From Patescibacteria group bacterium (GTDB taxonomy: Bacteria > Patescibacteriota > Patescibacteriia > Patescibacteriales > JAQVLT01), in NCBI GenBank assembly GCA_028704015.1, contig JAQVLT010000005.1:10820-74819 (forward strand): DNA of 64,000 nucleotides, in the 5' to 3' direction. Positions within the stretch are counted from its first letter, which is position 1, and each line of letters opens with the position of its first letter. The notes under the pieces were generated by a model that worked only from the letters and a program-made list of their open reading frames with translations, was not told the origin of the DNA and did no database searches. A program made the translations under genes and the position numbers. Below are positions 39,682-58,883 of the stretch, one piece after another.

Positions 39682-39699
39682 TTTTAGATTTACAAATTA

Positions 39700-40260
39700 T
39701 TATTTTACTTCTATTAGCCCAAAGAAATTAATATCAATTTCCTTAGTTAAACCATTTCGCACATCTTTTAGGACAATTTTTGCGTTATAATATTTTGTAC
39801 CGACAATATAAACAGTCGGGTCGGGCGGAAGAAAAGTAATATTTAAAACCTCACTTGACGTTTCAAAATTTGCACCATATTGTATTGAATCAACAACAAT
39901 ATTTGCGGGAAAAATAACTTCTTTCGCGCTTTTTGTTTTATCTGCCTCGCTAGGAGATGCTGTGTATGATTTATCACCGTCAACATCGGCAAAAATATAA
40001 TATTTATTATTACTTTTATCAATATAAAAACCCCAACCGCCGATAGGAAAATTACCTTCTCCGTAATTCACTAAACCTAAACTATAATTTTCCGCCAACC
40101 TAATATCGCTCGCCATTTGTTGAGCAGCAAAAATCAAATCTGCTCTTTGCGATGAAGCGCGATAATTAGCTAAAAAAATTCCAGTAATCAAAACAATAAC
40201 TGCGACGCTAACAAGCATCTCAACTAGAGTAAAACCATTTTTTCTTTCGAATTTCTTCAT
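39700..40260 (-). CDS. type IV pilin-like minor pilin (GspH/FimT-like)
   Basis: KNG|FTLVEMLVSVAVIVLITGIFLANYR, followed by AAQQMASDIRLAENYS as in GspH/FimT. Confidence 0.65.
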   Translation of the reverse strand: MKKFERKNGFTLVEMLVSVAVIVLITGIFLANYRASSQRADLIFAAQQMASDIRLAENYSLGLVNYGEGNFPIGGWGFYIDKSNNKYYIFADVDGDKSYTASPSEADKTKSAKEVIFPANIVVDSIQYGANFETSSEVLNITFLPPDPTVYIVGTKYYNAKIVLKDVRNGLTKEIDINFFGLIEVK

Positions 40261-40422: not shown

Positions 40423-41604
40423 TTACTTTGGTTTTACTTCTTTAAAAATTGGCAGATTAGGGCATGGCTGAGTGAGAGCAGGAGACGTTGCATTACTTTC
40501 CAAGATGGTTGATGGAGTACCGCTAAATACCGTGTCTAACTTATAAGTAACATTCTTTAAGCTAGAATCTATCGGCTTGTCAGTATAAGAAGTAGTGCTG
40601 GCGGGAATACTTGCATTAATAGTTGAATAATTAACTCCATCAACGCTGCGTTTTAATTCATAATGATCTATTGTGCCGACTGGCGCTGACCATTCTAATT
40701 TAACGCCAGCGCAATTATAACTATCAACTACTAAGCCTGACGCCGCACAGTAGCTAGAAGTAAATCCTTGGCCATTAACATTGGGTGACCAGCTGGAATC
40801 ATAACCAGTCTGCCCCAAGGCTTTAACCCGGAAATAATAATTAGTGCTTGGCAAAACTATTCCCGTACAACTGACTATATTTGCCGCGGTAGCGCAAAAA
40901 GATGACCAGCTGGACTCGTCTTGGCTATAGTCTACTTCAAAACCTGTTTCATTGCTGGAATTGTCAGTCCAATTTACCGTCGCTAATTTGCAAGGACCGC
41001 TTGTATTACTAATAGCACCCATAGTTGGCGTGGCCGGATATGGTGTAGCATAGACTACTCCATAATCTGGACTTGTACCATTAAAACTAATCCAACCAAC
41101 GCCAGTGCCATCATTATTACCATTCCAAGCATAGCCGGAAAATTTGCCACTAACATCAATGGACACCCCATTAGTCCAAGTACCACTCATTTCCAACCAG
41201 CCGTTATCGCCCAAAGCCAAAACTTTTGCCCAACCCGCAACACTGCCGGTCGTTTTATCATATTTGACAGAATAATTCGGCGCTTGCGGATAGCCAGAAG
41301 AGGGGGCAAAATCAACCCAGCCAAGATTTGGGCTCCAGGCATAGCCGGAAAAATTTCCAGTGGCCGAATCAATGTTTACGCCGTAATCCGCCGTGCCGCA
41401 AGAACTGTCGTTCGTGCAATTAAAGCTAATCCAGCCGTAATTAGAACTCCAGGCATAGCCGGAAACGTTTTGGCTAGTGCCGGCCTGAGCGAGAGGTATT
41501 TGCTTGGACATTTCCAGCCAAACAAGACCGCATAGAAACAACGCGATGAAAAAAATAGAAATAAAAATTAGAGAAAAAAATTTTTGTGGCTTTTTATTAA
41601 ACAT
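40423..41604 (-). CDS. secreted/anchored protein with four Trp-rich SGYAWSxNxGWISF repeats and two FN3-like domains
   Basis: N-terminal hydrophobic helix. Repeats: NVSGYAWSSNYGWISFN, NFSGYAWSPNLGWVDFA, SVAGWAKVLALGDNGWLEMS, KFSGYAWNGNNDGTGVGWISFN. FN3-like segments: LATVNWTDNS...YYFRVKAL and VKLEWSAP...YELKRS. Confidence 0.6.
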   Translation of the reverse strand: MFNKKPQKFFSLIFISIFFIALFLCGLVWLEMSKQIPLAQAGTSQNVSGYAWSSNYGWISFNCTNDSSCGTADYGVNIDSATGNFSGYAWSPNLGWVDFAPSSGYPQAPNYSVKYDKTTGSVAGWAKVLALGDNGWLEMSGTWTNGVSIDVSGKFSGYAWNGNNDGTGVGWISFNGTSPDYGVVYATPYPATPTMGAISNTSGPCKLATVNWTDNSSNETGFEVDYSQDESSWSSFCATAANIVSCTGIVLPSTNYYFRVKALGQTGYDSSWSPNVNGQGFTSSYCAASGLVVDSYNCAGVKLEWSAPVGTIDHYELKRSVDGVNYSTINASIPASTTSYTDKPIDSSLKNVTYKLDTVFSGTPSTILESNATSPALTQPCPNLPIFKEVKPK

Positions 41605-41657: not shown

Positions 41658-42404
41658 TTATTTGCAACATGCAACGACAAGTTTCTGGGAACAATCTGGC
41701 GGCAAAACACTACATCTATAGTCGTTAACCATCGACACGAATCTGCATTCCACTGCGCTACCATATAATCTATAATCATTAGAAGCCCAACCGTTACAAT
41801 CAGCCGGATGGGTTCCAGAATTTAACCCAAAAACACTATGAAACCAACTTCTTATAACGCTAGAATATCCTTTTTGCAATATTGCATTAATTTCTACGGA
41901 ATTACATACATGATAAGTTGAGTCACAACCATTTTGATGTATCCAGTCATTCATTGCTTTATAACCGCCTCCGTAATTATCACCAAAATATCCATCATGT
42001 TCTGCGGAGGTAAACTTAATTTGCACACTTCCCCAACTACCACTTGTTGCGTCGCTCCACTTATTTATGCAACTGCCCTCTAAACATAAAGAGCTAGAAG
42101 AGGCGGCGCCATTTACTTCCAATGCCGTCTGCGGGCTCGCTATGCCGATGCCGATATTACCAGTCGCGCTCACGTTACCATTAATACCCAAATTACCATT
42201 AACACCCAATGGCATATTAATAATGGCAGACGTTTCGGGTGTTGGGCTTTCATTAAATACTGGCGGATAAATATTGGAGCTAGGCGGCGTGGCAGACGGA
42301 GCTTGCCAAGCGGCAAAGACATAGCTTAAGGCTGCTGAAAAAATCAGTGCCAAAATAATAATTGCCGGGAAAAAAATTATTGGCTGAAAAAATTTTTTGT
42401 TCAT
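41658..42404 (-). CDS. secreted/anchored protein: AWQAPSATPP motif, G/N-rich segment, Cys-rich C-terminal domain
   Basis: N-terminal TM helix, then AWQAPSATPPSSNIYPPV, then GVNGNLGINGNVSATGNIGIGIASPQTALEVNG, then a 150-aa domain with about 11 Cys ending VVACCK. Confidence 0.55.
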   Translation of the reverse strand: MNKKFFQPIIFFPAIIILALIFSAALSYVFAAWQAPSATPPSSNIYPPVFNESPTPETSAIINMPLGVNGNLGINGNVSATGNIGIGIASPQTALEVNGAASSSSLCLEGSCINKWSDATSGSWGSVQIKFTSAEHDGYFGDNYGGGYKAMNDWIHQNGCDSTYHVCNSVEINAILQKGYSSVIRSWFHSVFGLNSGTHPADCNGWASNDYRLYGSAVECRFVSMVNDYRCSVLPPDCSQKLVVACCK

Positions 42405-43638: not shown

Positions 43639-44616
43639 CTATTTTACTTCAAAACTTCTCACCAACAATTCAAAAATATTTTTATAAACTGGCTGGTTGT
43701 CAGCCGATGTGTAGGACAAAGCAAAAACATATTTACGCGCCTTATCTGAAAGATATACTACCAGTCCGTCGTTGCTCCTTATACCCTCCCAGTTGTCAAA
43801 AGAAATTTTGTCAGCATTATCAATCGTACTTACGGAAAACTGTTTTTTGTACCAACTATCAATGGAGTCTAAGCTAAGATTTTGCTGAGTTACAATCTGC
43901 AAAAAATGATTATCAGGAGAGCTGAAAATAATAGAATCATCACCGCCAGCCTTGCTCATTATCCAAACCGAAGGATACAAAACTTTATAACCATAAGTTT
44001 TATTTTCAAAAGTGGTAATATTTTTATTATCTGCTAATTTTCCCGATCCACTAGGATCATATAAGTTCATTAATTCAGCAAAATCTGAATAACCATCGCC
44101 ATCACTATCAATATTATTACTATTTATATTTAACAATTCTTCTTCTTTATTATTTAAGCCATCACTATCGCTGTCCGTCATAATAGTTTGTATTTCCGCT
44201 TGGCTCGTTGTCTCTATTTCGGAGGAAGTAGCGGTTGAAGTAGTAATTTCACTAACTACGGTAGTAGCGGTTTCAGTGGCCGAGGTTCCCTCCTCCACAG
44301 AAACTATTGGCTCAGAAACAACCGGCTCCGTTTCACCGGCAACGATTTGCTCAGTAGGCGCAATAGCTGGCTGTTTAATTATAAAATAATAAAAAACTGC
44401 GCCGACAGCAATCATTAGAATTGCTCCTCCAAAAATAATTATTATCCCAACTTTTTTCGTCTGGCTGATTCTAGCGCGCTCTTCCCGATATTTCTCCGGC
44501 ATTGAGTGAACTACAATTTCTTTATTTAATCTGTCCAAACGCTCTTTTTTTGCTTTTTCTTCTTTGCTCTCTTCGGAAACAACGCCAACTTCATTTTTCT
44601 TTTTAAATCCAAACAT
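43639..44616 (-). CDS. single-pass membrane protein with T/S/E-rich linker, thrombospondin type-3-like Ca-binding repeats and a C-terminal globular domain
   Basis: TM helix VGIIIIFGGAILMIAVGAVFYYFII, then DSDSDGLNNKEEE...DSDGDGYSDFAELMNLYDPSGSGKL. Confidence 0.6.
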   Translation of the reverse strand: MFGFKKKNEVGVVSEESKEEKAKKERLDRLNKEIVVHSMPEKYREERARISQTKKVGIIIIFGGAILMIAVGAVFYYFIIKQPAIAPTEQIVAGETEPVVSEPIVSVEEGTSATETATTVVSEITTSTATSSEIETTSQAEIQTIMTDSDSDGLNNKEEELLNINSNNIDSDGDGYSDFAELMNLYDPSGSGKLADNKNITTFENKTYGYKVLYPSVWIMSKAGGDDSIIFSSPDNHFLQIVTQQNLSLDSIDSWYKKQFSVSTIDNADKISFDNWEGIRSNDGLVVYLSDKARKYVFALSYTSADNQPVYKNIFELLVRSFEVK

Positions 44617-44649
44617 ATTTGGTTAATTTTAAATTATAAATTATAAATT

Positions 44650-44669
44650 CCTGCCTGCCGGCAGGCAGG
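44650..44669. repeat. GC palindrome family, copy 2 (CCTGCCTGCCGGCAGGCAGG, perfect)
   Basis: Perfect 20-nt palindrome in AT-rich intergenic DNA. Confidence 0.75.
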
Positions 44670-44746
44670 TTAATTGAATGACAAATTTCTTAATTTTAAA
44701 TTTTCTTTCAACTTCGCTGCTCTCTCTTCCGGATTATAATAATTTG

Positions 44747-44804
44747 TCATTTTATCATTTAAAATTGATTTAAAATTTAAAATTTGATATTTAAAATTTT
44801 GTGC
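44747..44804. promoter_or_regulatory. conserved AT-rich intergenic element with phased ATTTAAAATT boxes, copy B
   Basis: Aligns with 38557..38613 with about 5 mismatches. Boxes start at 44757, 44768 and 44789 (11- and 21-bp spacing). It abuts tandem TAA stops. Confidence 0.5.
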
Positions 44805-44807
44805 TTA

Positions 44808-45794
44808 TTATTGCCCTAATTTTCCTGCTCCGAGTGGATTAAAACCATTTTTTACTTCCACGCCGTCAAGAAAACTGTCACCGTCAGTATCCGAATTTAA
44901 GGGGTTGGTTTTATAAACCTTAACCTCATCACCATCAGTCAAACCGTCTTTGTCAGTGTCGGAATTTAAAACATCAGTTTTATATTGCGCTTCTTCTACG
45001 TCAGTCAAACCGTCCTTGTCAGTATCGGGCGATTTGGGTGTTTGTCCGCTGGGAGCGGTTTGGCTCGGCAAATTAAATAATCTTCCCGTCCCCTTGGGAT
45101 TGTAACCGTTTTTAACTTCTTCTCCATCAACTATTCCGTCGCCGTCAGTATCCGGATTCAACGGATCGGTACTATAAATCCTTACTTCATCACGGTCAGA
45201 AAGACCATCTTCATCGGAATCGGCTAAGTTTAGATTTGTGCCGTATTTTTTTTCTTCTTCGTTAGGCAAGCCATCGCTATCGTTATCTTCGCTCGGTATG
45301 GCGGTCTCGATAGCAGTCACTTGAGACGTTGTCTCTGATGTTGAAGTGGAGGTAGTGGCCAGAGTATTTGACTGAATTGGCACCTCAGGAGTTGTTTCGG
45401 AAGTAGTTGTCGCTATTGGAAGTTGAGAGACAACCGGCGTCGTTGTACTCTTCATAAATTTAGCAAATACCAAATATCCACCGCCCAATATAATAAAAAT
45501 TCCAAAAAATATTCCCAATAAAACAAACAGTTTTTTACCTCTATCTTGGCTTTTAGCCCCGTCTTCTTCTATGTCAGTTATATTCGGTGTTGGAGCTTTG
45601 GGAATAAAAACTGCCGGTCGCGGAATATTTTTATTTATCGCGCCGACAACTGTTTTGTCCGTACCAGCATAAATATCCTCGACTTTTGACTGAGGAACTG
45701 GCGGATTGGCCGGTTTTGCCGGCATTACACCTGGCGCCGATGTATTAGCAGCAGCTATCGGTTGATTAGGTTTTTGTGTTAAATCGTCAAACAT
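44808..45794 (-). CDS. single-pass membrane protein with T/S-rich linker and about 7 thrombospondin type-3-like repeats
   Basis: TM helix LFVLLGIFFGIFIILGGGYLVF. Repeats DNDSDGL, DSDEDGLSDRDE, DTDGDGIVDGEE, DTDKDGLTDVEE, DTDKDGLTDGDE, DTDGDSFLDGVE. Ends NGFNPLGAGKLGQ. Confidence 0.65.
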   Translation of the reverse strand: MFDDLTQKPNQPIAAANTSAPGVMPAKPANPPVPQSKVEDIYAGTDKTVVGAINKNIPRPAVFIPKAPTPNITDIEEDGAKSQDRGKKLFVLLGIFFGIFIILGGGYLVFAKFMKSTTTPVVSQLPIATTTSETTPEVPIQSNTLATTSTSTSETTSQVTAIETAIPSEDNDSDGLPNEEEKKYGTNLNLADSDEDGLSDRDEVRIYSTDPLNPDTDGDGIVDGEEVKNGYNPKGTGRLFNLPSQTAPSGQTPKSPDTDKDGLTDVEEAQYKTDVLNSDTDKDGLTDGDEVKVYKTNPLNSDTDGDSFLDGVEVKNGFNPLGAGKLGQ

Positions 45795-45815: not shown

Positions 45816-46352
45816 TTATGGTAATTGAATAGCAAACCAGTCAAAACTTGAAGCATCACTGCCGCTGCTATTATTTGTTGATACGCTACAATTAACTGTA
45901 AACACAAGCTTGTTTTCTTTTGTAAAGCCGCAATAACTTGCATCCATTGTATTTCCATCCGAAGCAGCTTTATTATAGTCATGCTCCGATACAATAATAT
46001 GAGGCTCTTTACCATTTAAATCAAAACCATAATTAGCCAAATTAATTTGTTTTGTAATATTAAGAGTGCTGCCGCTCCACTCATCCTGCCCCGAGGCTAC
46101 TTTTATATTATTAAACATATTATCAACATAATCTTTACTGGCAAAGTCCACGGCTAAATTATTCCACTCGGTAGCGGTTAATTGTTGGCCGGCACTCTTG
46201 CTATAATTTGACGACAAGGCTAAAGCTGTATTATGTATATATAATGAATAAATTAAAGCCGCGCCGGCACCAGCGATTACGAGAAAAATAACCACTGCTA
46301 TTTTCAACTGAATTTCTAATTTTTTTATTTTTTTAAAATCTTGTCTGTTCAT
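45816..46352 (-). CDS. single-TM protein, member 1 of a tandem pair with conserved N-terminus and divergent C-terminus
   Basis: The first ~75 aa align with ORF 46375..46857 (KKL.IQL.IAV.IFL...ALSSNYSKS.GQQLTA.EWNNL..DFASKD). The C-terminal halves are unrelated by eye. Confidence 0.55.
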   Translation of the reverse strand: MNRQDFKKIKKLEIQLKIAVVIFLVIAGAGAALIYSLYIHNTALALSSNYSKSAGQQLTATEWNNLAVDFASKDYVDNMFNNIKVASGQDEWSGSTLNITKQINLANYGFDLNGKEPHIIVSEHDYNKAASDGNTMDASYCGFTKENKLVFTVNCSVSTNNSSGSDASSFDWFAIQLP

Positions 46353-46374: not shown

Positions 46375-46857
46375 TTACCAAGTAAAGCATGAAACGTAAC
46401 AATTTTGCTGGCCGGAATCATTTACTCCAATACTGGCCGACCATTGCCCATCATTATAACTTACCCGGCATAAACCAGCCGACGAATCATCATCCACCAT
46501 TGATAACGCGCAATATTTGTAATTTTTTATTTGGCTATTGACTGAAGCGACCTGGTTGCTATTGTTAAAAGGTAAATTAATAACTTGCAAGGTGCTGCTT
46601 TTTAAAACAAAATTATTACTTAAATTAGTTAAATCATCTTTAGAAGCAAAATCCGCAACTAAATTATTCCACTCATCAGCCGTCAGCTGTTGACCGTTGC
46701 TCTTGCTATAATTTGATGACAAGGCCAAAACGGCATTATGCGTATACAACGAATAAATTACAACTGCACCGACGCTTGCAACCGCTAAAAAAATTATTAC
46801 CGCGATTCTTAGTTGAATTTTTAATTTTTTCATTTCTTTTAAATAGGTTTGATTCAT
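46375..46857 (-). CDS. single-TM protein, member 2 of the tandem pair
   Basis: See 45816..46352. The C-terminus has 4 Cys and ends YVSCFTW. Confidence 0.55.
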   Translation of the reverse strand: MNQTYLKEMKKLKIQLRIAVIIFLAVASVGAVVIYSLYTHNAVLALSSNYSKSNGQQLTADEWNNLVADFASKDDLTNLSNNFVLKSSTLQVINLPFNNSNQVASVNSQIKNYKYCALSMVDDDSSAGLCRVSYNDGQWSASIGVNDSGQQNCYVSCFTW

Positions 46858-46893: not shown

Positions 46894-47268
46894 CTACTTC
46901 GTTAATTTTCCTGGTCCGTTCGGATTATAACCACTTCTTAATTCTTCCAAGTCATTAAAACCGTCCCCGTCCGTATCAACTTTTAAAGGATCAGTTTTGG
47001 TAGTATTAATTTCATCAACATCAAAAATTCCATCGCCGTCATTATCGGTAAGATTGGGATTTAAACCCATAGTCTTAGCTTGACTATCCAAAATACCATC
47101 ACCATTAGTATCTGGTTCGGCCGTCTTAACATCTTGCTCTTTATGATTAACATCCAATAGAAATTTTTCTTTATAAGCGGTGTTTCTAAAAAATAAAAAA
47201 TATACAGTAATTCCTAAAATAATAGCTACTACGATAATGACTAAAAATATTTTTTTTCTATTTATCAT
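46894..47268 (-). CDS. small single-TM protein with three thrombospondin type-3-like repeats
   Basis: TM helix IFLVIIVVAIILGITVYFLFF. Repeats DTNGDGILD, DNDGDGIFDVDE, DTDGDGFNDLEE. Ends SGYNPNGPGKLTK. Confidence 0.6.
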   Translation of the reverse strand: MINRKKIFLVIIVVAIILGITVYFLFFRNTAYKEKFLLDVNHKEQDVKTAEPDTNGDGILDSQAKTMGLNPNLTDNDGDGIFDVDEINTTKTDPLKVDTDGDGFNDLEELRSGYNPNGPGKLTK

Positions 47269-47291: not shown

Positions 47292-49376
47292 TTAATTGAC
47301 GCACACACAAATACCAGAGTTGCATGAAACATTCGGATAGTTTACGTCACAAACTACATTGCAACTTGACCATCCGTATGCGTCACCCAGCCAAGTACTT
47401 TTATATGCTCCGTTTGTTACAACGGTTGTATTACATATTTCTTCCGTATATCGCGTACACCCATTTTTAGTATAATTCAAATGATAACCGGCATCGCAGC
47501 TAATATCTCCTGGAAATGTGCAAGGAAAAATCAACGGGAACGTACAAACATTAATATAATTGGCACTCTGGCAGCCGGTATTGCAATAATAAATTTTTCC
47601 ATTATTACTTCCATCGTCGCAAACTTCTGAACCGTTTTTAATCCCATCACCGCAATAATCACCAATACCGCTACAATCGGCTTTGCATTTATTATAAGCT
47701 CCATTATCCGCGCCGTCGTCGCAAACCTCTAATCCGTTTTTTACACCGTCACCACAACTAACATCTTTTGGTTTTGATATTGTAATAATTTCGCTGCAAT
47801 CATTTTTGCAATAGGCACAAGCACTATCATAAGCAGGCAAACAAACCACTCCGTTGTTTACTCCGTTATCACAAATTTCCAAACCGTTTTTTATGCCATC
47901 ACCGCACCATTGCGTTTTTTCTACCGTACTTAATCCACTGCAATCATTTTTGCAATAGGTGCAAGTACTATCATAAACAGGCGAACAAACCACTCCGTTG
48001 CTTGCTCCGTTATCACAAATTTCCGCCACACCTAAACTATTTGGCTTTTGTATTTTGCCATCACCACAATAAGTATCAGCTAAAATATTTATACTGCAAA
48101 CTTTTTCCGTAAAACTATCAGAATGTTTTTCATCATGCACTATAACTTTATATTGATAGTTTTGTATCTTTCCCGCTATGGCCGCTGATAATTCTCTCTG
48201 ATTAGCAACGGTTGTTGGACTGATTTTCAAAAAACTATTTCCGGAATACCATTGCCAATTAGTCCAATCAGCGCTGGCGGAGGGATAAATCGGCTCAATT
48301 TTATCCCAAATTATTTTATTGTTTTCCGGATCTGACGCGCTAATATATCCTTTAAAAGGTTTTTCCGGATAACCTCTTAGGATTGGACAAATTATTTGCG
48401 GTAAACTATTTGATATAATTTCCTCATAAGAAACTGTTTCACTTCCCTCGCAAGCGCCTTGCGCTAAATCAGTAACATAACCTGACTCCATTACGGCGCA
48501 GACATTATATTTTAAACCGTTGTCTGAGCCGGAATATACCATTGTTTTACTACCGGCTGGCAGCACTAAATTGCCCCCGGAGACAGTCCCGGAAAATTCC
48601 TTTGCTTTTTCATCCCAACAGGTTATTTTATCAAACCGATTATTGCCGCAATTACCCAATTTGTTTACCGGATCAACCGGCAATGGCGACAAACCAATTT
48701 CACGAGAAAAATTCTCTTGCCAGCTTGGCCAAGTAGAAATTGTTTTATTGGGAAGATATGAACCGGCGGATAATTTTGGATAAAATCCTTTTTGTTTTTT
48801 GTAATTTTCCAAAGCAATTTTTATTTCTGCCAAATCGGATAGCCGCTTTGTGTCGCGTACTATTTTTGCCTTTGCGCCAGAACAAAATTGGCCTGCGTCA
48901 CAGTCGCTGTCTATCCGGCATCTTTTTGCGTCAGCGACTGGCGCGGCTGGCGGGGTAAAACATTTATCGGATGAATTTTCATTAATATTGGTATTGAATT
49001 TCCAATGCGAAAGAATTTGGCCAAAAATATCAAGCGTTCCGCTTTCGGCTTGTTGGTTATAAGAAATAAGATAAATGTTAGTATAAAAATTATTATCACT
49101 AATATTTGCCACATTAACATAAACCGTGCGACCATCGCGGATTGCTTCGTAACCGTCAACCAAAAGAGATTGAGGCGCACCGGTAAATTTCATTTCCTCT
49201 CTATACCAGCGCAGAGGCGAATAATGTTTTGAGTTGGGGATCACGCGAATAGCAATAGCATCGGGGGAAGTTTGCGCAGAGGAGGAAGAAGCAGAAAACA
49301 AAAAACAAAAAATCATTAAGAAAAATAAACATGTCCCTGCCAAAATTTTATAATTGAATTTTGATTTAATTTTCAT
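47292..49376 (-). CDS. secreted 694-aa protein with a headless pilin-like motif and four CGDGxxNGxExCDxG cysteine-rich repeats
   Basis: Signal peptide ending SSSAQT. VRDTKRLSDLAEIKIALENYKKQKGFYP (aa 173-200) resembles the pilin alpha1-C region. Four Cys repeats span aa 436-603 and resemble the Myxococcus-type cysteine-rich repeat. The tail is Cys-rich. Confidence 0.65.
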   Translation of the reverse strand: MKIKSKFNYKILAGTCLFFLMIFCFLFSASSSSAQTSPDAIAIRVIPNSKHYSPLRWYREEMKFTGAPQSLLVDGYEAIRDGRTVYVNVANISDNNFYTNIYLISYNQQAESGTLDIFGQILSHWKFNTNINENSSDKCFTPPAAPVADAKRCRIDSDCDAGQFCSGAKAKIVRDTKRLSDLAEIKIALENYKKQKGFYPKLSAGSYLPNKTISTWPSWQENFSREIGLSPLPVDPVNKLGNCGNNRFDKITCWDEKAKEFSGTVSGGNLVLPAGSKTMVYSGSDNGLKYNVCAVMESGYVTDLAQGACEGSETVSYEEIISNSLPQIICPILRGYPEKPFKGYISASDPENNKIIWDKIEPIYPSASADWTNWQWYSGNSFLKISPTTVANQRELSAAIAGKIQNYQYKVIVHDEKHSDSFTEKVCSINILADTYCGDGKIQKPNSLGVAEICDNGASNGVVCSPVYDSTCTYCKNDCSGLSTVEKTQWCGDGIKNGLEICDNGVNNGVVCLPAYDSACAYCKNDCSEIITISKPKDVSCGDGVKNGLEVCDDGADNGAYNKCKADCSGIGDYCGDGIKNGSEVCDDGSNNGKIYYCNTGCQSANYINVCTFPLIFPCTFPGDISCDAGYHLNYTKNGCTRYTEEICNTTVVTNGAYKSTWLGDAYGWSSCNVVCDVNYPNVSCNSGICVCVN

Positions 49377-49387: not shown

Positions 49388-52300
49388 TTAATCACTAATC
49401 GGTGTAGCCGCCGCAGTCGTCGTTGCGCTTGGATTGCCATATTGATCATAAGCCACTAAACCAAAACAATATTTATTATTATTTGCTAATCCCAAAATAG
49501 TAGTAGTTGCAATATTTCCGTTTGATTTTGACGCCACGACAGAAGTACCAAAATTTACTGTTGAGTTGCAATTTTGTTCTGCTTTGTAAAATATTCTAAA
49601 TCTGCTAGCATCACCATTACTGCTCATATCCTTCCAGACAATATCGGCTTTGCCATTTCCCGCTCGAGCATTAGTAACTATCGGTGAAGTCGGACCCTGG
49701 GTGTCCCAAGGAACAGCCAAGACTTCATTGGAATAAGCGCTTTCCGCTCCGCTAACATAAATAGCAGTTACAGCAAAATAATAAATTTTTCCATTATCTA
49801 AATTTTCAATGGTATAATTTGTGTTAGTTGTTGCTATAAAATCAAAATATTTTCTATTACTTAAACCATAATATACTTTGTAAGTTTTAAAGGTTTCGCC
49901 TGACGGAATATTGATCGCGCTCCAGTTCAAATTGACTTTATTTCCCTCACTAATATTTGAGTGAAGAGTCTCTGAATCAGCACCCGCAGACAAAACAATA
50001 TCGCTAACAACAGGCAAAGCGGAGCGAAAAAAATATGATTCTTTTAGCACTGTTTGGCAAAGCCCGCCGCCGCAATCAGCGTTTGACTTACAAGCTTTTC
50101 CAACATTAGCACCATAAACGCAGGTAGTAGTTCTTGCCCCCTGAATAACGGCCGCGTTACTCTGAATCGCCGGTAAATCGTCTGCTGTCCCTTCTCCGCC
50201 GGCATCACGACAATAATACAATTTATAATTTGTATCTTTACAATCGGTTGCTCCTGGCTGGCAATTACCTTCTTGGTCTTCCCATGGCGACCAGCTATGA
50301 ACAGAGGTAATAATTGGCGGCCAAGGATTCTCGCAGACAAAAACAAAGGCCTGTGTATCTCCTGTTTTTGTAGTCGTGGCGATGCCTGAGGTGCTAGCTG
50401 TCGCATGGATCCAGCTGAAATCATCAACAATATCATTTTGAGCTTGAATCAATTGTTTATTGCTGTTAGCAGCAAAAACGGATGTTGTGGCCAGGACGTC
50501 TGTTTTGTCAATTTTCCAAGTCCAAGTCCAATCATATGCGCCCAACACCGGATTTAAAACTTGATCATCGCTACTAAGCGCATAAGCAGTAAAAACTTTG
50601 TCATTATCAGCCGCTATATCAAATTTTGTCAGATTATCAGGGTCGTCAATTTCTTTAACATCACTCTCTGTGGTGTTAAATAAGTAATCATCCGGTTCAA
50701 TTACTATTTTATCAACTAAGCAGATACCATTATTGTCTTCTCCCTGATTAGCCAAAGTTTTAAACGACCAAATTTCCGCATTAGCAAAACTTAAACCATT
50801 AAACAAACTTACCGATGTATTATTAACACCCTTAAAGCCGACACCTTCTTTGCTTAATATTCCTTTTTTGTTACCCAAGATTTCTTCACCTTTTATAATC
50901 GCATAGTAGGTAACGCTTGGATCTAACAATTTCTTAGGACTAAATGTTAATGTTGTGTAAGTGGCTGAATTTTGTCCGCCGGTTGTCCCTTCTATAGCGC
51001 AGAAATTGCTCGTAGCTTGGGCAAAAGCGTCATCACCAAAAAGAGGAGTCAAAACCGGTTTTAATATTACGTTTATACTTCGCGCGATTCTTTTGTAAAT
51101 TTTAGAAACAAATCCGATCTTTGGCTGACCGCTACCATCAAGCGACAAATAAGTTGTATTGATCGGGCATTGCTTATCTTCATAATCACCAACAACTATA
51201 ATATTACCTTTAAAACTTGTAATATCCATCAAACTGTTAAATTGAGCTTGAATTTGGGTATTGCGACAAATATTATTTCCTATTGGAGTTTTGCTATTTA
51301 TAGCTGGCCGCGGATGACAACAAGTATCCCCTCCACATCCAATGGCATCAACGCCGCCGCAATCGCTGTCCTGACTGCAACCGCAACAAAGACCGCGATT
51401 AGCTCCGCTACACGAACCACGATTTGCATGGCAAGTTAGCTTTGGATTCTTTTTAGCACACTGATCAACGGCGGCATTTGGATCACAGCAACAAACACCA
51501 CAACTTGGATAAACCGATCCGGACCCATCCTGATTCAAGCAGGAAAAACCATTGCAAATATTTGTATCACACACTGGTTCGGAAACCGTAGATTCCGTGG
51601 AGCACTCTTTACCGAATTCCGGTCCCGGTTTGCATTGATCAGTGCACTGCGCCTGCGTATAAAAAACCGCGTTGGTGCTACTGGCAATTTTATTATTATC
51701 ACAAGAATCGCCGCTAGCACTACACTTATAATAAGCGCAATAAGCCAAACCAGACGGATTGTTGGAAACAATATTTTTATCTCCGGTTCCGCCGCGGCAA
51801 ACATTATTTTTCATCGCATCAACACAACAAGTACCATGGCTAGAACATTCTTCTAAATTTGTTACTTTTGTGCAATCGCTACAAACGCCCTTACCGCCTG
51901 CCGCCGTCACATCGCAAAATTTTCCGAAATGACCGGAACAATTGCACGCAGCATCTGGATCGGGCGCAGAAGCGCAACCGGTACAAACGCCAAAATCAGT
52001 GCCGGCCGCATCGCTACCGCAACCGCCTTCGCATTTTAACGGCGAACAGCAATCTTGGTCACCATTAGCCTTGCGACAACAGCAATCACAACTAGCCTGA
52101 TCGGCTACTTTGCACTTGTTATCACTCTCACACTTAGCATTTCCAGAACAAATATTTTGTTCAATTCCGCAAATACCAACGCCACTATTATTCAAACATT
52201 TATAACCATCGGCGCATAAATTGCATAATCCGTCGCTCCCCATATTAACGCATTTATTTCCAGAAATTTTTGTCCATCCAGTAGGACAACTATCAACGCT

Positions 52301-55300
52301 ATTAAAATGCCAGCGATTTTCATTATTATACACAGAACAATATTTTTCTACGCTTTCGCCCGATGAATTAATTGCGGTTCCATTTAGCGAGCAACTATTT
52401 TCAGCTTTCTTAACGCATTTATTCAAATTACTATTATATTCGCAACTACCGCTTGCACACGCGCCTATACCATTGCAGGAATAATTGCAATCACCTACTT
52501 CTTTTTTTGTTCCGGCTGCCGGCTGATAAGGCGAACATTGTCCCGGAGAATTTGGACAGAGATTATTGGATAAACATTGATTCAAATTATAACCCGAGCA
52601 AGAAGGCGGACAGCTGGAAGTAGCATCACCTAAATAATTGATGCAACCCGCATTACAACAATTGCCGTCGCCGCATTTATTTTTTCCCGCTGGGCAACCG
52701 ATGCATTGGCTTTCTGAAGCATTTTGACATGTACCTTTTACGCAACAAACATTACCGCAAGCTTCTTGGTCAGTCGCGCATTCGGTTTTTGGCTGGCAGG
52801 TACAATTTTTAGATGGATCACAAAATAAATTTTGGCTTCCAGCACATTTAGTATTATCAGGTTCGCACGTAGTTGTTTCTGAATTTCCATCGCACGGATC
52901 TCCTGGTTGCGACCCGGTTTTTCCTGTACTAAATTCAAACTCATAAACAGCCGCAAGCGCACCCTGGCGGCAATTAGCTAAGGTGGCTTTACATAAACCT
53001 TCAAAGGTACTGCCGGCAGGACAACAAACTTGGCTATTAGTGCAAGATCCGCCTTGGTCCAAACAGGACGCAGGAATTCCGCTTGTCCTGCATTTTTCTT
53101 CACACTCATTAATATCTTTAAAATATGGGTTACCTGGCGTTGTTGAAGCAACTAAAATATTTTTATTGCAACTATTTGTATCACATAAATAATAACCACA
53201 ATACGCGCTAGTGGTAGTCCTACTTCCCACGCTACATTTATTTTTGTCCATCGCATCAATACAACATTCACTAGACTGAGAACATTCCGCTTCGTTGGTT
53301 ATAGAAGAACAATTAACCGATGTGGTTGTCGCTTCGTGCGCTATAAATTCAAATTCATAAACTGCCGCCGTGGGACGTTGGTTGCATTTGACAAGCGAGT
53401 CGCGGCATTCGCCGGCGTAAACGGTGTCGGCGGCGCAACAAATATTTCCTGTACCACAAACAGCGTTTTTTTCCTCTTCCGTATTACCAGCCGCCAAACA
53501 ACCAATCGCTCCGGTTGGCATCGTGGTGGTTGCTATTTCTGTGCCTATCGTTGTTGTACCGTTTGAAGATTCATCGTCTTTGACGAAATTCAAATAATTA
53601 CTTATTAAATTATTTGCACTTTTTACAAAAGTTGAAGTTAAACCAACGGATAAATTTGGCACTTTGGCTTGGCCATTTAACGCGCTAAAACCAAGACTTA
53701 CGGCCAAAATATTATTGGCGCTATCGCCAAAATAAGGATTAACATTGGATAAACTAACGCCATTATAAGTAACTACGTCGTTCACTTTTCCATGATTAGG
53801 ATTAAGTTGGCAGATTCCCGGACGGGTAATATTATTAACTACAAAATTTGGTAAATTCGGGCCATAATTATCATTGGTTGAATCTTCGTAATTATTAATG
53901 GCATTTTTTATTTTAATCGGACTATTGGCCGCAACTCCATCTGGCACAACCGCGATGATTTGACGGTCGCTCCAATTATCAACGCAAGCTGAATTAGTAG
54001 TGTTTGCTAAACTTGCTTCCACCAGAGTCCCGTCATTTTTGGTAAACCAAACTTGCCCGATAGTAGACCCAAAATTACGACCGCCAATAGTGACTAAATT
54101 TCCCGTCGCTCCATTAGGCGTGTTAATATTACATTCGCTCGCAGTGCAATCTGAGTCAAGCTGGCAAATTTTATTTGTATCATTTTCACAAAATCCGCCG
54201 ATCGGAGTAACCCAGCTGATCATTGGTTTGGTCTGACAAATGCATCCTTCGGTTTTGCAAGCGCAAAAGGCAGTTGAACATAAATTGTCATTGCAATTTG
54301 TTTTGTCGCTATCGCTGCACTGCGGTTCCAAATCCGCCTGATTGCAAGGACCGCCTTCGCAGGCTAAACAATCACCGCCGCAATCAATGCCAATTTCACC
54401 GGAATCTTTTATGCCATTACAACAATGCCCCGGCTTTATTGCAGCCGTAAATTCACTTTGGCCAAAAGCCAAAGTTGCGTCATAGGCTTTTATTTTAAAT
54501 GTATAATTTTCTCCGATATTCATGTTCGCGGTGTTTGTCTGATAACCACCGGAAAAATCTTTCTGCCCGCCGGCTTGAAATATTTGTTTTTCCTCTTCGT
54601 TTTCTCCTGACTTTTTTTCATAAAATTTTACAAAAGAAAGCCCGAGATCGTCATTTGCCCAACCTGATATTAAATTGGCATCAGCTTTGAGCGTGCCATC
54701 ATCTTTGCAAATCTGGCTTGGCGCTATTCCGGCTGTCGGAGCGCTGGTATCAATAGCATCGTTAGTGGCAAAAATAAATGTACAGCTGGCGGTTTGGCAA
54801 GTTAAACTATTTCCATTAATAGATTTGATGCCGCTCAAAGCATTCACTGTCACCTGAAAACCGCTCCATTCCGGCAAGCAATTTGTCGCCCCGCTGGCGC
54901 CACAGTCAGCACTGGCTCTAAAAATTATTTGTCTCGTGGAAGAACTTATTAAACCGATAATATTTTCTGGCGCGCTTAAACTCGTAGTAGCAACATGATC
55001 ATCGTTGTAAGTATAAATTTTTTCTACTTTAATATTATTATTCAAATCATCTTGCGCAAGTTTTGTTAAATCTTTATTGAAAGTTAAAACAATAGCGGAA
55101 TTTCTCGGATTATTAATACTTCTGTCAGACGGATTATTGCTATAAATAAATTCGCCAAATGAGGCGCATCCCAGGCCGACACAACCGCCTGGAACACAAG
55201 AAGTTTTGCATGTCCCCGAACAGCAATAAAAATTTCCCGTACAATCAGAATCTACCGCGCAAGTCTGACCTTCTTCCACTCCGGTCGCCTGCATAATTCG

Positions 55301-55645
55301 GCTGATAACAAAACTGGCAATTGCAAAAGACATAAGAATTATTATCAAACCGATTAGAGCAGCTTTTAATGTTTTTTTGGCTTTCTCAATTTGCTCTGCA
55401 TTTCCGGCGGCCGTCATATACATCCAGCCGGCATAAATTATTATCCCGACAGCAATGATTCCCAAAAATCCCAAAGCAACTCTAATAACATTAGCAACTA
55501 TCAAACGCGGATCAGTAGAACCAAGTCCGATTTGCTCGCCAAAAGATAATCCGAGATCGGTTTGCGCAAAAACAAAACTAGCCACTCCTAAACAGCTAAA
55601 AAGTGTAAAAGATAATATTAATATTATTTTTATTTTTTTAGACAT
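49388..55645 (-). CDS. giant (2085 aa) surface protein: VirB2/TrbC-pilin-like two-helix N-module, Ig/IPT-like domains, hyper-cysteine core, two C-terminal FN3 domains
   Basis: A single uninterrupted ORF. The N-terminal 120 aa are paralogous to those of ORF 56163..58883. About 149 Cys by hand count. FN3-like segments: NLNWSAI...YYFAVTAIY and ADIVWKD...YCFGLVAYD. Confidence 0.8.
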   Translation of the reverse strand: MSKKIKIILILSFTLFSCLGVASFVFAQTDLGLSFGEQIGLGSTDPRLIVANVIRVALGFLGIIAVGIIIYAGWMYMTAAGNAEQIEKAKKTLKAALIGLIIILMSFAIASFVISRIMQATGVEEGQTCAVDSDCTGNFYCCSGTCKTSCVPGGCVGLGCASFGEFIYSNNPSDRSINNPRNSAIVLTFNKDLTKLAQDDLNNNIKVEKIYTYNDDHVATTSLSAPENIIGLISSSTRQIIFRASADCGASGATNCLPEWSGFQVTVNALSGIKSINGNSLTCQTASCTFIFATNDAIDTSAPTAGIAPSQICKDDGTLKADANLISGWANDDLGLSFVKFYEKKSGENEEEKQIFQAGGQKDFSGGYQTNTANMNIGENYTFKIKAYDATLAFGQSEFTAAIKPGHCCNGIKDSGEIGIDCGGDCLACEGGPCNQADLEPQCSDSDKTNCNDNLCSTAFCACKTEGCICQTKPMISWVTPIGGFCENDTNKICQLDSDCTASECNINTPNGATGNLVTIGGRNFGSTIGQVWFTKNDGTLVEASLANTTNSACVDNWSDRQIIAVVPDGVAANSPIKIKNAINNYEDSTNDNYGPNLPNFVVNNITRPGICQLNPNHGKVNDVVTYNGVSLSNVNPYFGDSANNILAVSLGFSALNGQAKVPNLSVGLTSTFVKSANNLISNYLNFVKDDESSNGTTTIGTEIATTTMPTGAIGCLAAGNTEEEKNAVCGTGNICCAADTVYAGECRDSLVKCNQRPTAAVYEFEFIAHEATTTSVNCSSITNEAECSQSSECCIDAMDKNKCSVGSRTTTSAYCGYYLCDTNSCNKNILVASTTPGNPYFKDINECEEKCRTSGIPASCLDQGGSCTNSQVCCPAGSTFEGLCKATLANCRQGALAAVYEFEFSTGKTGSQPGDPCDGNSETTTCEPDNTKCAGSQNLFCDPSKNCTCQPKTECATDQEACGNVCCVKGTCQNASESQCIGCPAGKNKCGDGNCCNAGCINYLGDATSSCPPSCSGYNLNQCLSNNLCPNSPGQCSPYQPAAGTKKEVGDCNYSCNGIGACASGSCEYNSNLNKCVKKAENSCSLNGTAINSSGESVEKYCSVYNNENRWHFNSVDSCPTGWTKISGNKCVNMGSDGLCNLCADGYKCLNNSGVGICGIEQNICSGNAKCESDNKCKVADQASCDCCCRKANGDQDCCSPLKCEGGCGSDAAGTDFGVCTGCASAPDPDAACNCSGHFGKFCDVTAAGGKGVCSDCTKVTNLEECSSHGTCCVDAMKNNVCRGGTGDKNIVSNNPSGLAYCAYYKCSASGDSCDNNKIASSTNAVFYTQAQCTDQCKPGPEFGKECSTESTVSEPVCDTNICNGFSCLNQDGSGSVYPSCGVCCCDPNAAVDQCAKKNPKLTCHANRGSCSGANRGLCCGCSQDSDCGGVDAIGCGGDTCCHPRPAINSKTPIGNNICRNTQIQAQFNSLMDITSFKGNIIVVGDYEDKQCPINTTYLSLDGSGQPKIGFVSKIYKRIARSINVILKPVLTPLFGDDAFAQATSNFCAIEGTTGGQNSATYTTLTFSPKKLLDPSVTYYAIIKGEEILGNKKGILSKEGVGFKGVNNTSVSLFNGLSFANAEIWSFKTLANQGEDNNGICLVDKIVIEPDDYLFNTTESDVKEIDDPDNLTKFDIAADNDKVFTAYALSSDDQVLNPVLGAYDWTWTWKIDKTDVLATTSVFAANSNKQLIQAQNDIVDDFSWIHATASTSGIATTTKTGDTQAFVFVCENPWPPIITSVHSWSPWEDQEGNCQPGATDCKDTNYKLYYCRDAGGEGTADDLPAIQSNAAVIQGARTTTCVYGANVGKACKSNADCGGGLCQTVLKESYFFRSALPVVSDIVLSAGADSETLHSNISEGNKVNLNWSAINIPSGETFKTYKVYYGLSNRKYFDFIATTNTNYTIENLDNGKIYYFAVTAIYVSGAESAYSNEVLAVPWDTQGPTSPIVTNARAGNGKADIVWKDMSSNGDASRFRIFYKAEQNCNSTVNFGTSVVASKSNGNIATTTILGLANNNKYCFGLVAYDQYGNPSATTTAAATPISD

Positions 55646-56162: not shown

Positions 56163-58883
56163 CTACGGGCATGTACTTGATGCCGTAGCTGTGCCGCTGC
56201 AGCAAGAAGGTGTGACCGTATTAATACCTGCTGGGCAAGCAGGACCGCTAGCTGGCATAAAACAATTCTGATAAATATCCTGAACACCAGAACCGGCTTG
56301 ACCGCGATATTTCTGCATATCACTAAACATAGAATGTTTTATATAAACCTCGGTCAAATCAGGATAGCCATCTTGGGGCAAGGTGTCTGATTCTAAATCC
56401 TCCTTTGTTATCCAGTATCCCAGCGGGTCGGAGCTAAAAGAAATCAAATTAACATTTTTGTTTTCTACATAAACTGACTGAGTAGGAGTGCTTTGTGTCT
56501 CATCCTTTTCCTGCGTTGAACCGGTTTTTAAAGTGCTTGCTCGCAATAATTTATTAAATTTAATTATCAAATAATTTGAAAGGTTAGCTCCGCTGCTCGC
56601 ATTGGCCGGCGTAGTTGCGGTGATAGCCGGACCGTTAGTATCTTTACTAGATCCTACAAAGAATGACCACTGAAAATTGTCACCCGCAGTAGATGCGCTA
56701 ATCGGCTCAGTAAGCTCGTAAAAGCTAACTGGACCTTCGGCATTGCCATTTCTATTACCGTCCAAAGAATTCAAAGCCATATCAACCACGCCGTCTATAT
56801 TTGTTGTATTTGCTACGGGATAATTTAAAGCCGGATTGCTGTTGTCTTTACAAACTCCGCTAACACAATTGCTGTATGGACTTTTAGTCGCACAATCATT
56901 ACTGCCAACCGCGCAAGTCTGCAAACTCGCAGCTTTTAATTCAACACGCAAATTTGCCCTGGCTGGCAAACAATAAATTTTCTGTCCGCAAGCATTTACG
57001 CCGCATTCCTTGTCTGATTTAAATTCCACTGTTTTATATCCATTGGGAGAAACATAAAATTCACCTTCTAAATAATCATTATCACCCGTGCAGACGCCAC
57101 TAACACACTTGAATGATTTGCATTCCGCGTCAGCTGCACAGGTTGCTGTTTTGGCTTTGGCATCACTCGCGGCATTAACAATTTTTATATAATTTGCGAC
57201 CGCGCTAGCTTGCCCGGAAATCAAATTTGGCATTATCGGTTCATTAAAATTAATCTGAATCGTAGCATTCATCGGTTCATCCGGTCTGCCGTTAACTTCA
57301 AATTTAACTGCTTTATCTTTTCCCCCGCTCATATTAGTAATAGTTAAAATATTTGCATTGCTTAACGAAGTTACGGAAATATTATTTCCACTTACCCCAG
57401 CAACTTTAGCTGCAAGCGTGACTACTCCTTGATTAGATGTAGCTGTTATTCCTAAATTGCTGTCATTTATTGCCTTGGCAATATTAGCTGCGGTAGCAGC
57501 CTCATTAGAGCTCGCTACAATTTTGCCGGCGCCGGCATTACTGCTAAATGTAAAAATTGTATTTCCAATTTTTAGCGTATCCGCCTCCTTGGGTGAAGTT
57601 AAAGTTATTTTCCATTCATCTCCTTGTTTAAATGTGCCATCAGATGGTTTTAATATCAAACCACAGCTAATATCAGCAATGTTGTCGGTTGTGCTGTCTC
57701 CGCTTACAAAACCGGAAACATTAGTAACTGAAGCTGTATTGTTATTTATGCTGACATTAACATCCCCATCATAAGTGCATGAATAATTACCTTCCAATTT
57801 AGCATCTTCCGTTTCACTGCCAGAATCCGCCTTTACCGGTTGAGTATAAGATGCGGACACGGCTACCTGCGGCAAACCATTTACCACTATTGAACCAACA
57901 GCCGCGACAGCAGACTCTTCTGAAATTACGGTGTCCTGTTCTCCGTCTGGCACAGGAAAAACGTCCTTCACCTGCGGTGGAGTCAAATCCAAAAGCGTAC
58001 CAACTTCAAACTGCCATTCAAAATAAGCGGTATTGCGGCAATTAGCAAAAACACTTTTTTTGTTATTAGTCTGGATGCCATCTGTTAATCTGACAATATA
58101 CCAAATTTTCTCCGAAGCCGAACCAAGATATTCGGTCGGCCTAAAGACAAAGGTTTTATTATCGCTACTGCTGACTACTACGTCAACTAAATTACAGCCA
58201 GACTGCACATTTCCCACGCCAGTCATCAAACAATTTGTTCTTAGCACCTGCTTAAATATTTTTATATCTGATGTTGGCCCGCTATTGGGGGCGCAAAGTC
58301 CTGTTTCAGGAACTACTTCGCTGCAAATTGTTGTTGGATCAATTGCTTCCTTAAAAGTCACTACAATTGGATAATTTCTTGCCACATCCAATTGTCCGTC
58401 CTCGGGGTAGACGCTATCAATGCTACAATTTCCCAGGGCGCCAAAACCCGGACGAAATCCTGGCGTACCTCCCGGTACGTTCGTGCCTGTTCCCCCGAGA
58501 CTTCCGGCTAACCGACCAATAATGAAACTGACGATTGCAAAAGCTGACAATATAATTATTAAGCCAATCGCGGCGTTTTTTAAAATAGCAATCGCTTTTT
58601 TTACTTTCTCCTCATTACCTTCACTCGTCATGTACATCCAGCCGCCGTAAATAATAAGCACTACCGCCAAAATTCCCAGAAATCCAAGGGCGACTCTAAC
58701 CACTTTTGCCGCAATCAAACGCGGATCTTCTTGGCTTAAACCGGTCCCAGCGCCGTATTGAATACCGGTCAAATCATCGGTTTGCGCAAGAGCAAAATTA
58801 CTGAGTAATAAAAAAATAGCTCCCCAAGCGAAAATCGCTATCAAAGCTATTTTTATTTTTTTTGAGTTCTTTTGTATAAACAT
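56163..58883 (-). CDS. large (906 aa) surface protein with VirB2/TrbC-pilin-like two-helix N-module and Ig-like/Cys-containing extracellular domains
   Basis: N-terminus ...LAQTDD...DPRLIAAKVVRVALGFLGILAVVLIIYGGWMYMTSEGNEEKVKKAIAILKNAAIGLIIILSAFAIVSFIIGRL. SbsA/Big-like segments follow (P-x-D-G...V...I.V.F), then the tail CPAGINTVTPSCCSGTATASSTCP. Confidence 0.75.
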   Translation of the reverse strand: MFIQKNSKKIKIALIAIFAWGAIFLLLSNFALAQTDDLTGIQYGAGTGLSQEDPRLIAAKVVRVALGFLGILAVVLIIYGGWMYMTSEGNEEKVKKAIAILKNAAIGLIIILSAFAIVSFIIGRLAGSLGGTGTNVPGGTPGFRPGFGALGNCSIDSVYPEDGQLDVARNYPIVVTFKEAIDPTTICSEVVPETGLCAPNSGPTSDIKIFKQVLRTNCLMTGVGNVQSGCNLVDVVVSSSDNKTFVFRPTEYLGSASEKIWYIVRLTDGIQTNNKKSVFANCRNTAYFEWQFEVGTLLDLTPPQVKDVFPVPDGEQDTVISEESAVAAVGSIVVNGLPQVAVSASYTQPVKADSGSETEDAKLEGNYSCTYDGDVNVSINNNTASVTNVSGFVSGDSTTDNIADISCGLILKPSDGTFKQGDEWKITLTSPKEADTLKIGNTIFTFSSNAGAGKIVASSNEAATAANIAKAINDSNLGITATSNQGVVTLAAKVAGVSGNNISVTSLSNANILTITNMSGGKDKAVKFEVNGRPDEPMNATIQINFNEPIMPNLISGQASAVANYIKIVNAASDAKAKTATCAADAECKSFKCVSGVCTGDNDYLEGEFYVSPNGYKTVEFKSDKECGVNACGQKIYCLPARANLRVELKAASLQTCAVGSNDCATKSPYSNCVSGVCKDNSNPALNYPVANTTNIDGVVDMALNSLDGNRNGNAEGPVSFYELTEPISASTAGDNFQWSFFVGSSKDTNGPAITATTPANASSGANLSNYLIIKFNKLLRASTLKTGSTQEKDETQSTPTQSVYVENKNVNLISFSSDPLGYWITKEDLESDTLPQDGYPDLTEVYIKHSMFSDMQKYRGQAGSGVQDIYQNCFMPASGPACPAGINTVTPSCCSGTATASSTCP

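Follow-up and report, generated by a model that had tools for sequence, protein, structure and literature searches.

A large Patescibacteria family of modular, putatively Sec-exported proteins carrying a stemless pilin-like domain

Known pilins and adhesins compared with the 694-aa protein

Modular type IV pilins carry adhesion modules, often PF05345, grafted onto a pilin; they are widespread, highly diverse and frequent in the candidate phyla radiation (CPR; Raynaud et al. 2021, PMC8179133). The protein analysed here is the 694-amino-acid (aa) product of an open reading frame (ORF) with an ATG start, located at 47292..49376 on the minus strand of the window, that is, the whole 64,000-nt stretch that was analysed of contig JAQVLT010000005.1, from an uncultivated, ultra-small Patescibacteria bacterium. 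It belongs to a family that shares its general plan with modular pilins such as Streptococcus sanguinis PilB and PilC and the PF05345 pilins of CPR bacteria: a small pilin module is followed by adhesion modules (Ig/He_PIG, VWA or lectin-like). The C-terminal part of the first pilin helix (alpha1C) and the alpha-beta loop are homologous in the two groups. However, modular pilins have a class III signal and a 21-residue N-terminal helix segment (alpha1N), while the family has a Sec-type signal peptide, an orphan N-terminal domain (N-domain) and a Cys knot instead. Since the class III signal and alpha1N are absent, the family protein would be unable to act as a pilus subunit of any known kind. 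Modular pilins are defined by an N-terminal IPR012902 plus an extra domain; here the extra modules are present and the IPR012902/class III motif is absent.

The pilins of the GspG type (T2SSG, PF08334; 'type II secretion system protein G' of CPR bacteria) contain a helix, RD(A/T)KR..D...I..ALE.Y....G.YP, that is in register with the query protein, as is the W..W/F...L...LP.DP.N segment that follows. The query nevertheless falls under the Pfam threshold, its beta-sheet half cannot be aligned and it has no N_methyl motif. The PilY1/PilC tip adhesins of type IV pili (T4P) combine, as the family would, Sec export with a conserved carrier and variable effector modules (PMC8179133), but the family lacks the IPR008707 beta-propeller carrier, and no linkage to T4P genes was seen in five related loci. 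The four CGDG...E.CD.G..N repeats of the query resemble those of the Myxococcus cysteine-rich repeat proteins (TIGR02232/DUF4215, IPR011936), although there are only four copies, below the DUF4215 threshold, and they sit on an unrelated N-terminal module.

Pam pili, too, are built from surface proteins that are specific to CPR bacteria and contain disulfides and Ig-like folds, as predicted for the family. Their pilins, PamA and PamB, consist of two beta-domains joined by a donor strand, the pam operon includes the PamC/D chaperones, and the pili occur mainly in Saccharimonadia and Microgenomatia (bioRxiv 10.64898/2026.03.03.709456). Pam pilins lack the pilin alpha1C helix, and their described architecture sets them apart from the family; membership of the Pam pilus family was rejected for that difference. 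The parts of the 694-aa protein (pilin head, Ig-like domain, Myxococcus-type repeat) are of known kinds. Their combination appears to be undescribed, the literature searched containing no description of the family or of Sec-exported stemless pilin domains. What appears new is that a stemless pilin head follows a Sec signal and a highly conserved orphan domain, and that this arrangement characterises a very large family which is specific to CPR bacteria and whose TSP3 partner is conserved.

The pilin-derived domain and its setting

From its N-terminus, the 694-aa protein comprises the Sec-type signal peptide, the orphan N-domain, the Cys knot, the pilin-like domain, an Ig-like domain, four Cys repeats and a Cys-rich tail. 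It contains 42 Cys, 11 of them within the last 84 residues. Every feature that an earlier, sequence-only reading had listed was found at the residues given there. Whole-protein Pfam and NCBIfam scans returned no match above threshold, and a deposited twin, an identical protein from a Patescibacteria metagenome-assembled genome (MAG), is labelled hypothetical. An AlphaFold2 model of the full-length protein, based on 88 homologs, was confident for aa 40–430, with a predicted local distance difference test score (pLDDT) mostly >90.

The pilin-derived domain occupies aa 168–322 (48411..48875, minus strand). It is predicted to consist of an alpha1C helix of 29 residues (168–196), a helix in the alpha-beta loop (217–227), the LPVDPVNKLG segment and four strands (264–294), and it has conserved Cys at 243, 253, 293 and 309. 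When aa 160–322 were modelled alone, the same elements were obtained (pLDDT 89.9; predicted TM-score 0.84). The pilin-like motif, VRDTKRLSDLAEIKIALENYKKQKGFYP (aa 173–200), lies within the predicted helix 168–196. It had been taken for the C-terminal half of alpha1 plus the start of the head, in the pattern common in Gram-positive and CPR pilins, and several profile comparisons agree with this assignment.

A family hidden Markov model (HMM) built from 40 members was compared with 120 natural prepilins, all containing PF07963, that had been fished with a generic CPR-pilin N-terminus; this sequence served as bait only. The scores of the prepilins had their median at 18.3 bits and went up to 41.1 bits, while 2,400 shuffled pilins reached 8.8 bits at most. 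A second set comprised 114 full-length CPR pilins (∼165 aa) related to the best match. Over both sets the family profile gave medians of 18–23 bits and maxima of 40–41 bits, and all 120 and all 114 natural prepilins scored above the shuffled maximum. The alignment starts at pilin residues 35–51, directly past the hydrophobic alpha1N, runs through alpha1C and extends to WP.W/F...L...LP.DP.N, a non-helical segment absent from the bait. Profile–profile comparison with hhalign gave a probability of 97.5% (E 6.8e-12) against the 120 prepilins and of 98.5% (E 3.2e-15) against the 114 CPR pilins, family columns 14–85 corresponding in the latter case to pilin positions 47–121. Searches of other collections pointed to the same pilin type. 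A profile of aa 160–322 from the 40 family members produced only five weak matches among PDB sequences; four of these were T2SS major pseudopilins (GspG), aligned along the helix and as far as the YP turn. In single scans of the 40 members against Pfam, T2SSG (PF08334) was found in eight (best E 0.018) and any other family in two at most; the query itself gave no match to PF08334, remaining below the gathering threshold.

Judged from these profile alignments, aa ∼173–245 are homologous to pilins, and the evidence supports homology of the motif with the alpha1C helix and alpha-beta loop of the T2SS-G-like (type II secretion system G) type IV pilins of CPR bacteria. The hydrophobic alpha1N of ∼21 residues is absent; the Cys knot CRIDSDCDAGQFCSGAKAK precedes the alpha1C helix in its place. 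With neither a class III signal nor alpha1N, the 694-aa protein contains a pilin-derived domain and is not a pilin. The term 'headless', used for it earlier, is a misnomer, the head appearing to be present and the hydrophobic stem being absent; 'stemless' describes it better.

The N-terminus (aa 1–35; 49272..49376, minus strand) has the n-h-c layout of a Sec-type signal peptide, MKIKSKFNYK / ILAGTCLFFLMIFCFLF / SASSSSAQ, with a positive n-region, a 17-residue hydrophobic core and a c-region of small residues. A helix is predicted at 8–28, and cleavage would likely follow SSSSAQ. A Sec-type signal directly ahead of a conserved SPDAIA motif was present in all 45 homologs inspected, out of 120 aligned. 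No class III motif (G-F-T-L-x-E; searched as G[FYWM][TS]..E) was found in the 694-aa protein, the expression matching only three other ORFs of the window, and the Pfam and NCBIfam scans gave no match to N_methyl (PF07963). The N-terminus is thus an ordinary signal peptide free of a class III signal, as had been proposed. A lipoprotein was considered and rejected, since the LAGTC sequence falls within the hydrophobic core of the signal peptide.

No other part of the family is as conserved as the N-domain (aa 36–135; 48972..49271, minus strand), homologs showing 65–76% identity to the query here as against a mean column identity of ∼47% in the pilin-like domain. Its predicted fold is alpha/beta (strands 41–47, 69–73, 76–81, 84–93 and 96–106; helices 54–62 and 112–124; pLDDT >90). 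Profile searches detected no relatives of it in Pfam or among PDB sequences, the matches being noise only. A linker at 48876..48971 (minus strand), with C139, C153, C159 and C165, connects it to the pilin-like domain. The knot that was expected after the signal peptide is indeed present in this linker: CRIDSDCDAGQFC, aa 153–165, with the family consensus CxxDxDCxxxxYC. The linker gave sub-threshold matches only, to Dickkopf_N (E 0.048) and TIGR04201 (E 1.2).

Downstream of the pilin-like domain lies a predicted Ig-like beta-sandwich of the He_PIG/cadherin-like kind (aa 326–432; 48081..48401, minus strand), with strands across 327–431 and a pLDDT of ∼90. Foldseek with the full-length model returned Ig matches only (Ig V-set domains, SraP; E 5e-4 to 2e-3), and the family profile over this region matched PKD and cadherin-like chains. 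The query segment itself has no Pfam match, and the PF05345 matches of homologs may sit in later domains.

Four tandem disulfide-rich repeats of the TIGR02232/DUF4215 type follow (aa 436–610; 47547..48071, minus strand). The copies span 436–489, 490–539, 540–573 and 574–610, and each contains CGDG..NG.E.CD.G..NG; four or more CGDG were found in none of 20,000 shuffles of the 694-aa protein, in agreement with the tandem repeats reported previously. Their assignment to the Myxococcus type held only in part. TIGR02232 scored 25.8 bits on aa 433–610 alone (cut-off 20.8; E 6.6e-6; four stretches), but 18.6 bits, under the cut-off, on the whole protein, so that membership of this family should be regarded as borderline. 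DUF4215 (PF13948) reached 18.7 bits (E 0.0023), below its gathering threshold of 27. Two close homologs (P0002 and P0003), whose repeat regions can be aligned with that of the query, carry precomputed PF13948 matches. The protein ends in a tail (aa 611–694; 47292..47546 including the stop codon, minus strand) that is Cys-rich as described earlier (11 Cys), has a low pLDDT and matches no Pfam or NCBIfam family; depending on the position, 1 to 7 of 119 homologs share it, mostly 3.

A protein family of Patescibacteria

The query belongs to a very large family sharing its conserved N-terminal module; neither this family nor the conserved gene cassette had been noticed in the sequence-only reading. 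A word-indexed search gave 722 significant matches among the candidates scored. With an exhaustive profile search, representatives of 1,518 clusters (50% identity) were obtained at E≤1e-3, 1,282 of them at E≤1e-10. Details were taken from the best 150 of these matches, all of which were family members. The source names of the matches, on which the taxonomic distribution rests, were all Patescibacteria, Parcubacteria or Falkowbacteria; a contig scan with a single protein yielded three loci. The region aa ∼35–430 of the query aligned with each of the 119 homologs retrieved, with 38–54% identity over the alignment. The family signature consists of a signal peptide, an SPDAIA...HWKFNTN domain, a CxxDxDC knot, an RDTKRL...YP...WPSW...DPxNKLG...TCWD domain and an Ig domain, and the query conforms to it. 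The C-termini of the homologs vary, with He_PIG, Big_9, cadherin, VWA, propellers of the NHL/Vgb-lyase type, TSP1, fibrinogen-C and DUF4215 modules. Pfam does not cover the first ∼300 residues of the family, and its annotation is hypothetical only; one relative is annotated as 'MopE-related'.

All complete members among the best 150 have the pilin-like domain at an internal position. No intermediate with a near-N-terminal domain, which might have kept alpha1N, was found among them; all four candidates were N-terminally truncated fragments. These data bear on whether the resemblance to pilins could be a chance or convergent helical motif, or whether the gene could be a degraded or mis-started pilin gene. 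The Foldseek check proposed previously, run on aa 160–322, gave no significant pilin match, which would suit this explanation, as would the failure of the query itself to match PF08334. However, the profile–profile E value of 3e-15 extends over 70 columns and includes the non-helical WPxW...LPxDPxN segment that lay outside the bait, the shuffled controls stayed at or below 8.8 bits, and the architecture is kept in >1,500 clusters. As regards degradation, the ORF is intact and separated by an 11-nt gap from the upstream gene. This explanation is therefore highly improbable, and already largely refuted. A mis-framed (frameshifted) pilin gene was likewise rejected, given the intact ORF and the conserved architecture.

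Two Patescibacteria MAGs contain minimal members, at 5830..6924 of locus L006 (364 aa) and 5830..6918 of locus L007 (362 aa). Their parts are limited to a signal peptide, the N-domain, a Cys knot in expanded form and the pilin-like domain. They end right after the pilin-like domain, at genuine stop codons and with no downstream continuation detected. Their existence indicates that the N-terminal module is an autonomous unit.

The N-terminal module might then be an assembly subunit in which the N-domain replaces alpha1N, bare and modular members together building a Sec-dependent, T4P-independent array or fibre. The coexistence of bare (362–364 aa) and modular members, reminiscent of major and modular pilins, would fit such a structure, as would the extreme conservation of the N-domain relative to the pilin-like domain, the occurrence of tandem paralogs and the precedent of a novel Sec-type pilus in CPR bacteria, the Pam pili (bioRxiv 10.64898/2026.03.03.709456). 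We nonetheless consider it unlikely: nothing points to self-association, AlphaFold2 predicts a compact monomer, no chaperone- or usher-like genes were seen in the cassette in the window or in two related loci (L004 and L005), and the window contains a single member. In a related reading, the module could be a building block or docking unit of an unrecognised Sec-dependent, T4P-independent surface structure of Patescibacteria. The N-domain would have taken over the anchoring or assembly role of alpha1N and would bind the membrane-anchored TSP3 partner or the VirB2-anchored giants, both described below, or else self-assemble, and the bare (∼360 aa) and modular members would correspond to major and modular pilins. 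This, too, we hold to be unlikely.

Gene neighbourhood and proposed role

The window has a G+C content of 32–42% and nearly all of its coding sequence is on the minus strand, where the genes of the window that are given below with coordinates are also located. The family gene starts 11 nt past the stop codon of a gene for a 2085-aa protein and ends 23 nt ahead of the next gene. No terminator-like hairpin was found between the family gene and its neighbours, the first one lying at 44669..44650. The downstream gene (46894..47268) encodes a 124-aa protein with an N-terminal transmembrane (TM) segment and a TSP3_bac match (30.2 bits; cut-off 25). This pairing is conserved: for seven of the eight family genes in the window and five related loci, the next gene lies 4–28 nt downstream and encodes a protein with two to three strict TSP3 motifs, DxDxDGxx[DN]xxE. 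It holds for each copy of the tandemly duplicated family genes in loci L001 and L002, and six of the seven downstream proteins showed a TM segment at the N-terminus.

Upstream, the 2085-aa Cys-rich surface protein (49388..55645) has an N-terminal VirB2-like T4SS_pilin domain (PF18895) followed by Big_5 and fn3 matches in Pfam. The first gene of the cassette (56163..58883) encodes a 906-aa Cys-rich surface protein, also with a T4SS_pilin (PF18895) anchor and Big_5. VirB2-like domains are widespread in CPR bacteria (bioRxiv 10.1101/2025.01.22.634366). The cassette ends with two membrane-anchored TSP3-repeat proteins of 328 and 325 aa (43639..45794), upstream of ybeY-dgkA; TSP3_bac scored 93 bits for the former and 18.6 bits, under the cut-off of 25, for the latter. 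Between the TSP3 genes lie two paralogs for small membrane-anchored proteins of 160 and 178 aa (46375..46857 and 45816..46352) that have LALSSNYSKS.GQQLTA.EWNNL..DFASKD in common and no Pfam match. The order of T4SS_pilin giants, family gene, TSP3 proteins and ybeY-dgkA is repeated in loci L004 and L005. In addition, one ORF of at least 4,070 aa at 22..12234 (plus strand) of locus L008, rich in CGNG..E.GEECD repeats, holds both a segment homologous to aa 1769–1838 of the 2085-aa protein (E 3e-8) and the family module (E 3e-29); as read from these matches, it is a fusion-type link between the 2085-aa gene and the family gene. The MAG that contains it bears the label Gammaproteobacteria, possibly through an error in binning.

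A gene for a 23S rRNA intervening-sequence protein (PF05635; 55725..56084) lies between the two giant genes, and in L001 and L002 the family gene is preceded, at a distance of a few genes, by PF05635 genes. These two loci also have glycosyltransferase genes upstream of it; the window has a glycan-biosynthesis cluster at 18869..28947, with four GT4 glycosyltransferases, an asparagine-synthase-like protein, a B12-binding radical SAM protein and an NAD-dependent epimerase/dehydratase. A DsbA/thioredoxin-like oxidoreductase encoded at 31840..32670 would fit an extracytoplasmic proteome rich in disulfides, and probably helps the many exported proteins that are rich in Cys to form disulfides. As listed, its ORF and that of the upstream amidase (32579..34117) overlap by ∼90 nt, one TTG start probably being mis-set.

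The window also contains a T4P minor-pilin operon (36901..40260), with genes for three N_methyl prepilins of 186, 160 and 188 aa, which have class III signals, and for a PilX_N/GLUG protein of 518 aa. Between this operon and dgkA, 40423..41604 encodes a predicted exported protein of 393 aa with fn3 and a repeated 'GYAWS.N.GWI.F', and 41658..42404 a predicted exported protein of 248 aa with a Cys-rich C-terminus and no Pfam match. No major pilin with the RDAKR...YP helix was found in the window. The pilin operon lies 7 kb downstream of the family gene on the same strand, a location that would fit a T4P accessory or tip adhesin following the PilY1/PilC logic, with the pilin head acting as a mimic that docks onto the minor-pilin tip complex so that T4P present the C-terminal modules. 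The pilin homology detected with hhalign is genuine, a carrier-plus-effector logic is known for PilY1 and modular pilins (PMC8179133), and T4P matter in host attachment by CPR bacteria (PMC11623550). This role is doubtful, however. In the five related loci there was no N_methyl gene within 7–10 kb of the family gene, the conserved neighbours are the TSP3 and VirB2-like-anchored proteins rather than pilins, and the literature searched offered no precedent for a stemless pilin head docking on a pilus tip.

The same neighbours bear on the idea that the protein is a freely released soluble effector, for example a toxin or a protein that binds hosts or metals, instead of an adhesin attached to the cell. 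It has a signal peptide and no recognisable anchor, disulfide-stabilised Cys-rich modules suit extracellular life, and the 'MopE-related' annotation of one relative points in that direction. Yet the family gene is tightly and conservedly paired with those of the membrane-anchored TSP3 protein and the giants, relatives carry typical adhesin modules (Ig, cadherin, VWA), and no catalytic or toxin domain was found in the Pfam and NCBIfam scans of the 694-aa protein. Free release thus seems quite unlikely.

The reading we favour, with a probability of about 0.55, is that the 694-aa protein is exported by Sec and serves at the cell surface as a modular adhesin or in host contact, that its pilin module has been exapted and does not polymerise, and that it works together with the TSP3 protein and the VirB2-anchored giants. 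Beyond the observed architecture, family size, modularity and synteny, we infer export with cleavage of the signal peptide, retention at the surface, partner interactions and an adhesive role. The first ∼430 residues (orphan N-domain, Cys knot, pilin domain lacking alpha1N, Ig-like domain) would form a conserved 'carrier' and the C-terminus an exchangeable 'effector', consisting here of the four TIGR02232/DUF4215 repeats plus the Cys-rich tail, and in relatives of He_PIG, cadherin, VWA, NHL/beta-propeller, TSP1 and other modules. T2SS-G-like type IV pilins, from which the pilin-like domain would descend, are abundant in CPR bacteria. The Sec signal peptide, N-domain and Cys knot would have replaced the class III signal and alpha1N; with these lost, neither processing by prepilin peptidase nor polymerisation via an alpha1N core would be expected, and the domain may act as a soluble scaffold or docking domain. 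As the stem for filament insertion would have been replaced, presentation should not proceed through the canonical T4P core. The family gene would be co-transcribed with those for the VirB2-anchored giants upstream and the TSP3 calcium-binding protein downstream. The protein probably forms a complex with these partners at the cell surface, the very highly conserved N-domain being the likely docking element.

Several points weigh against this proposal. In the beta-sheet half of the pilin-like domain, hhalign could detect no sequence similarity to pilins, and the Foldseek search with the isolated domain model brought no fold-level confirmation. The repeats and tail could not be modelled (pLDDT ∼30). 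As the 694-aa protein has no anchoring motif (no C-terminal TM segment and no sortase signal), retention at the surface rests on synteny alone. The minimal 362–364-aa members, which have no effector module, imply that the N-terminal module has a function beyond carrying adhesion domains. Finally, DUF4215 has no known function; its repeat type is present in a diatom adhesive-trail protein.

Patescibacteria (CPR) depend on physical attachment to host cells and, to our knowledge, how they attach is largely unknown beyond T4P. The variable adhesion modules of the family are of the kinds also found in modular pilins. If its stemless module does serve T4P-independent display, it would represent a second major route by which CPR bacteria diversify their host-binding surfaces, and would clearly exemplify the exaptation of a pilin head for a role away from filaments. 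The interaction suggested by the tight pairing with the membrane TSP3 protein is directly testable. This very large, unnamed family points to a means, so far undescribed, by which host-dependent cells display adhesion modules.

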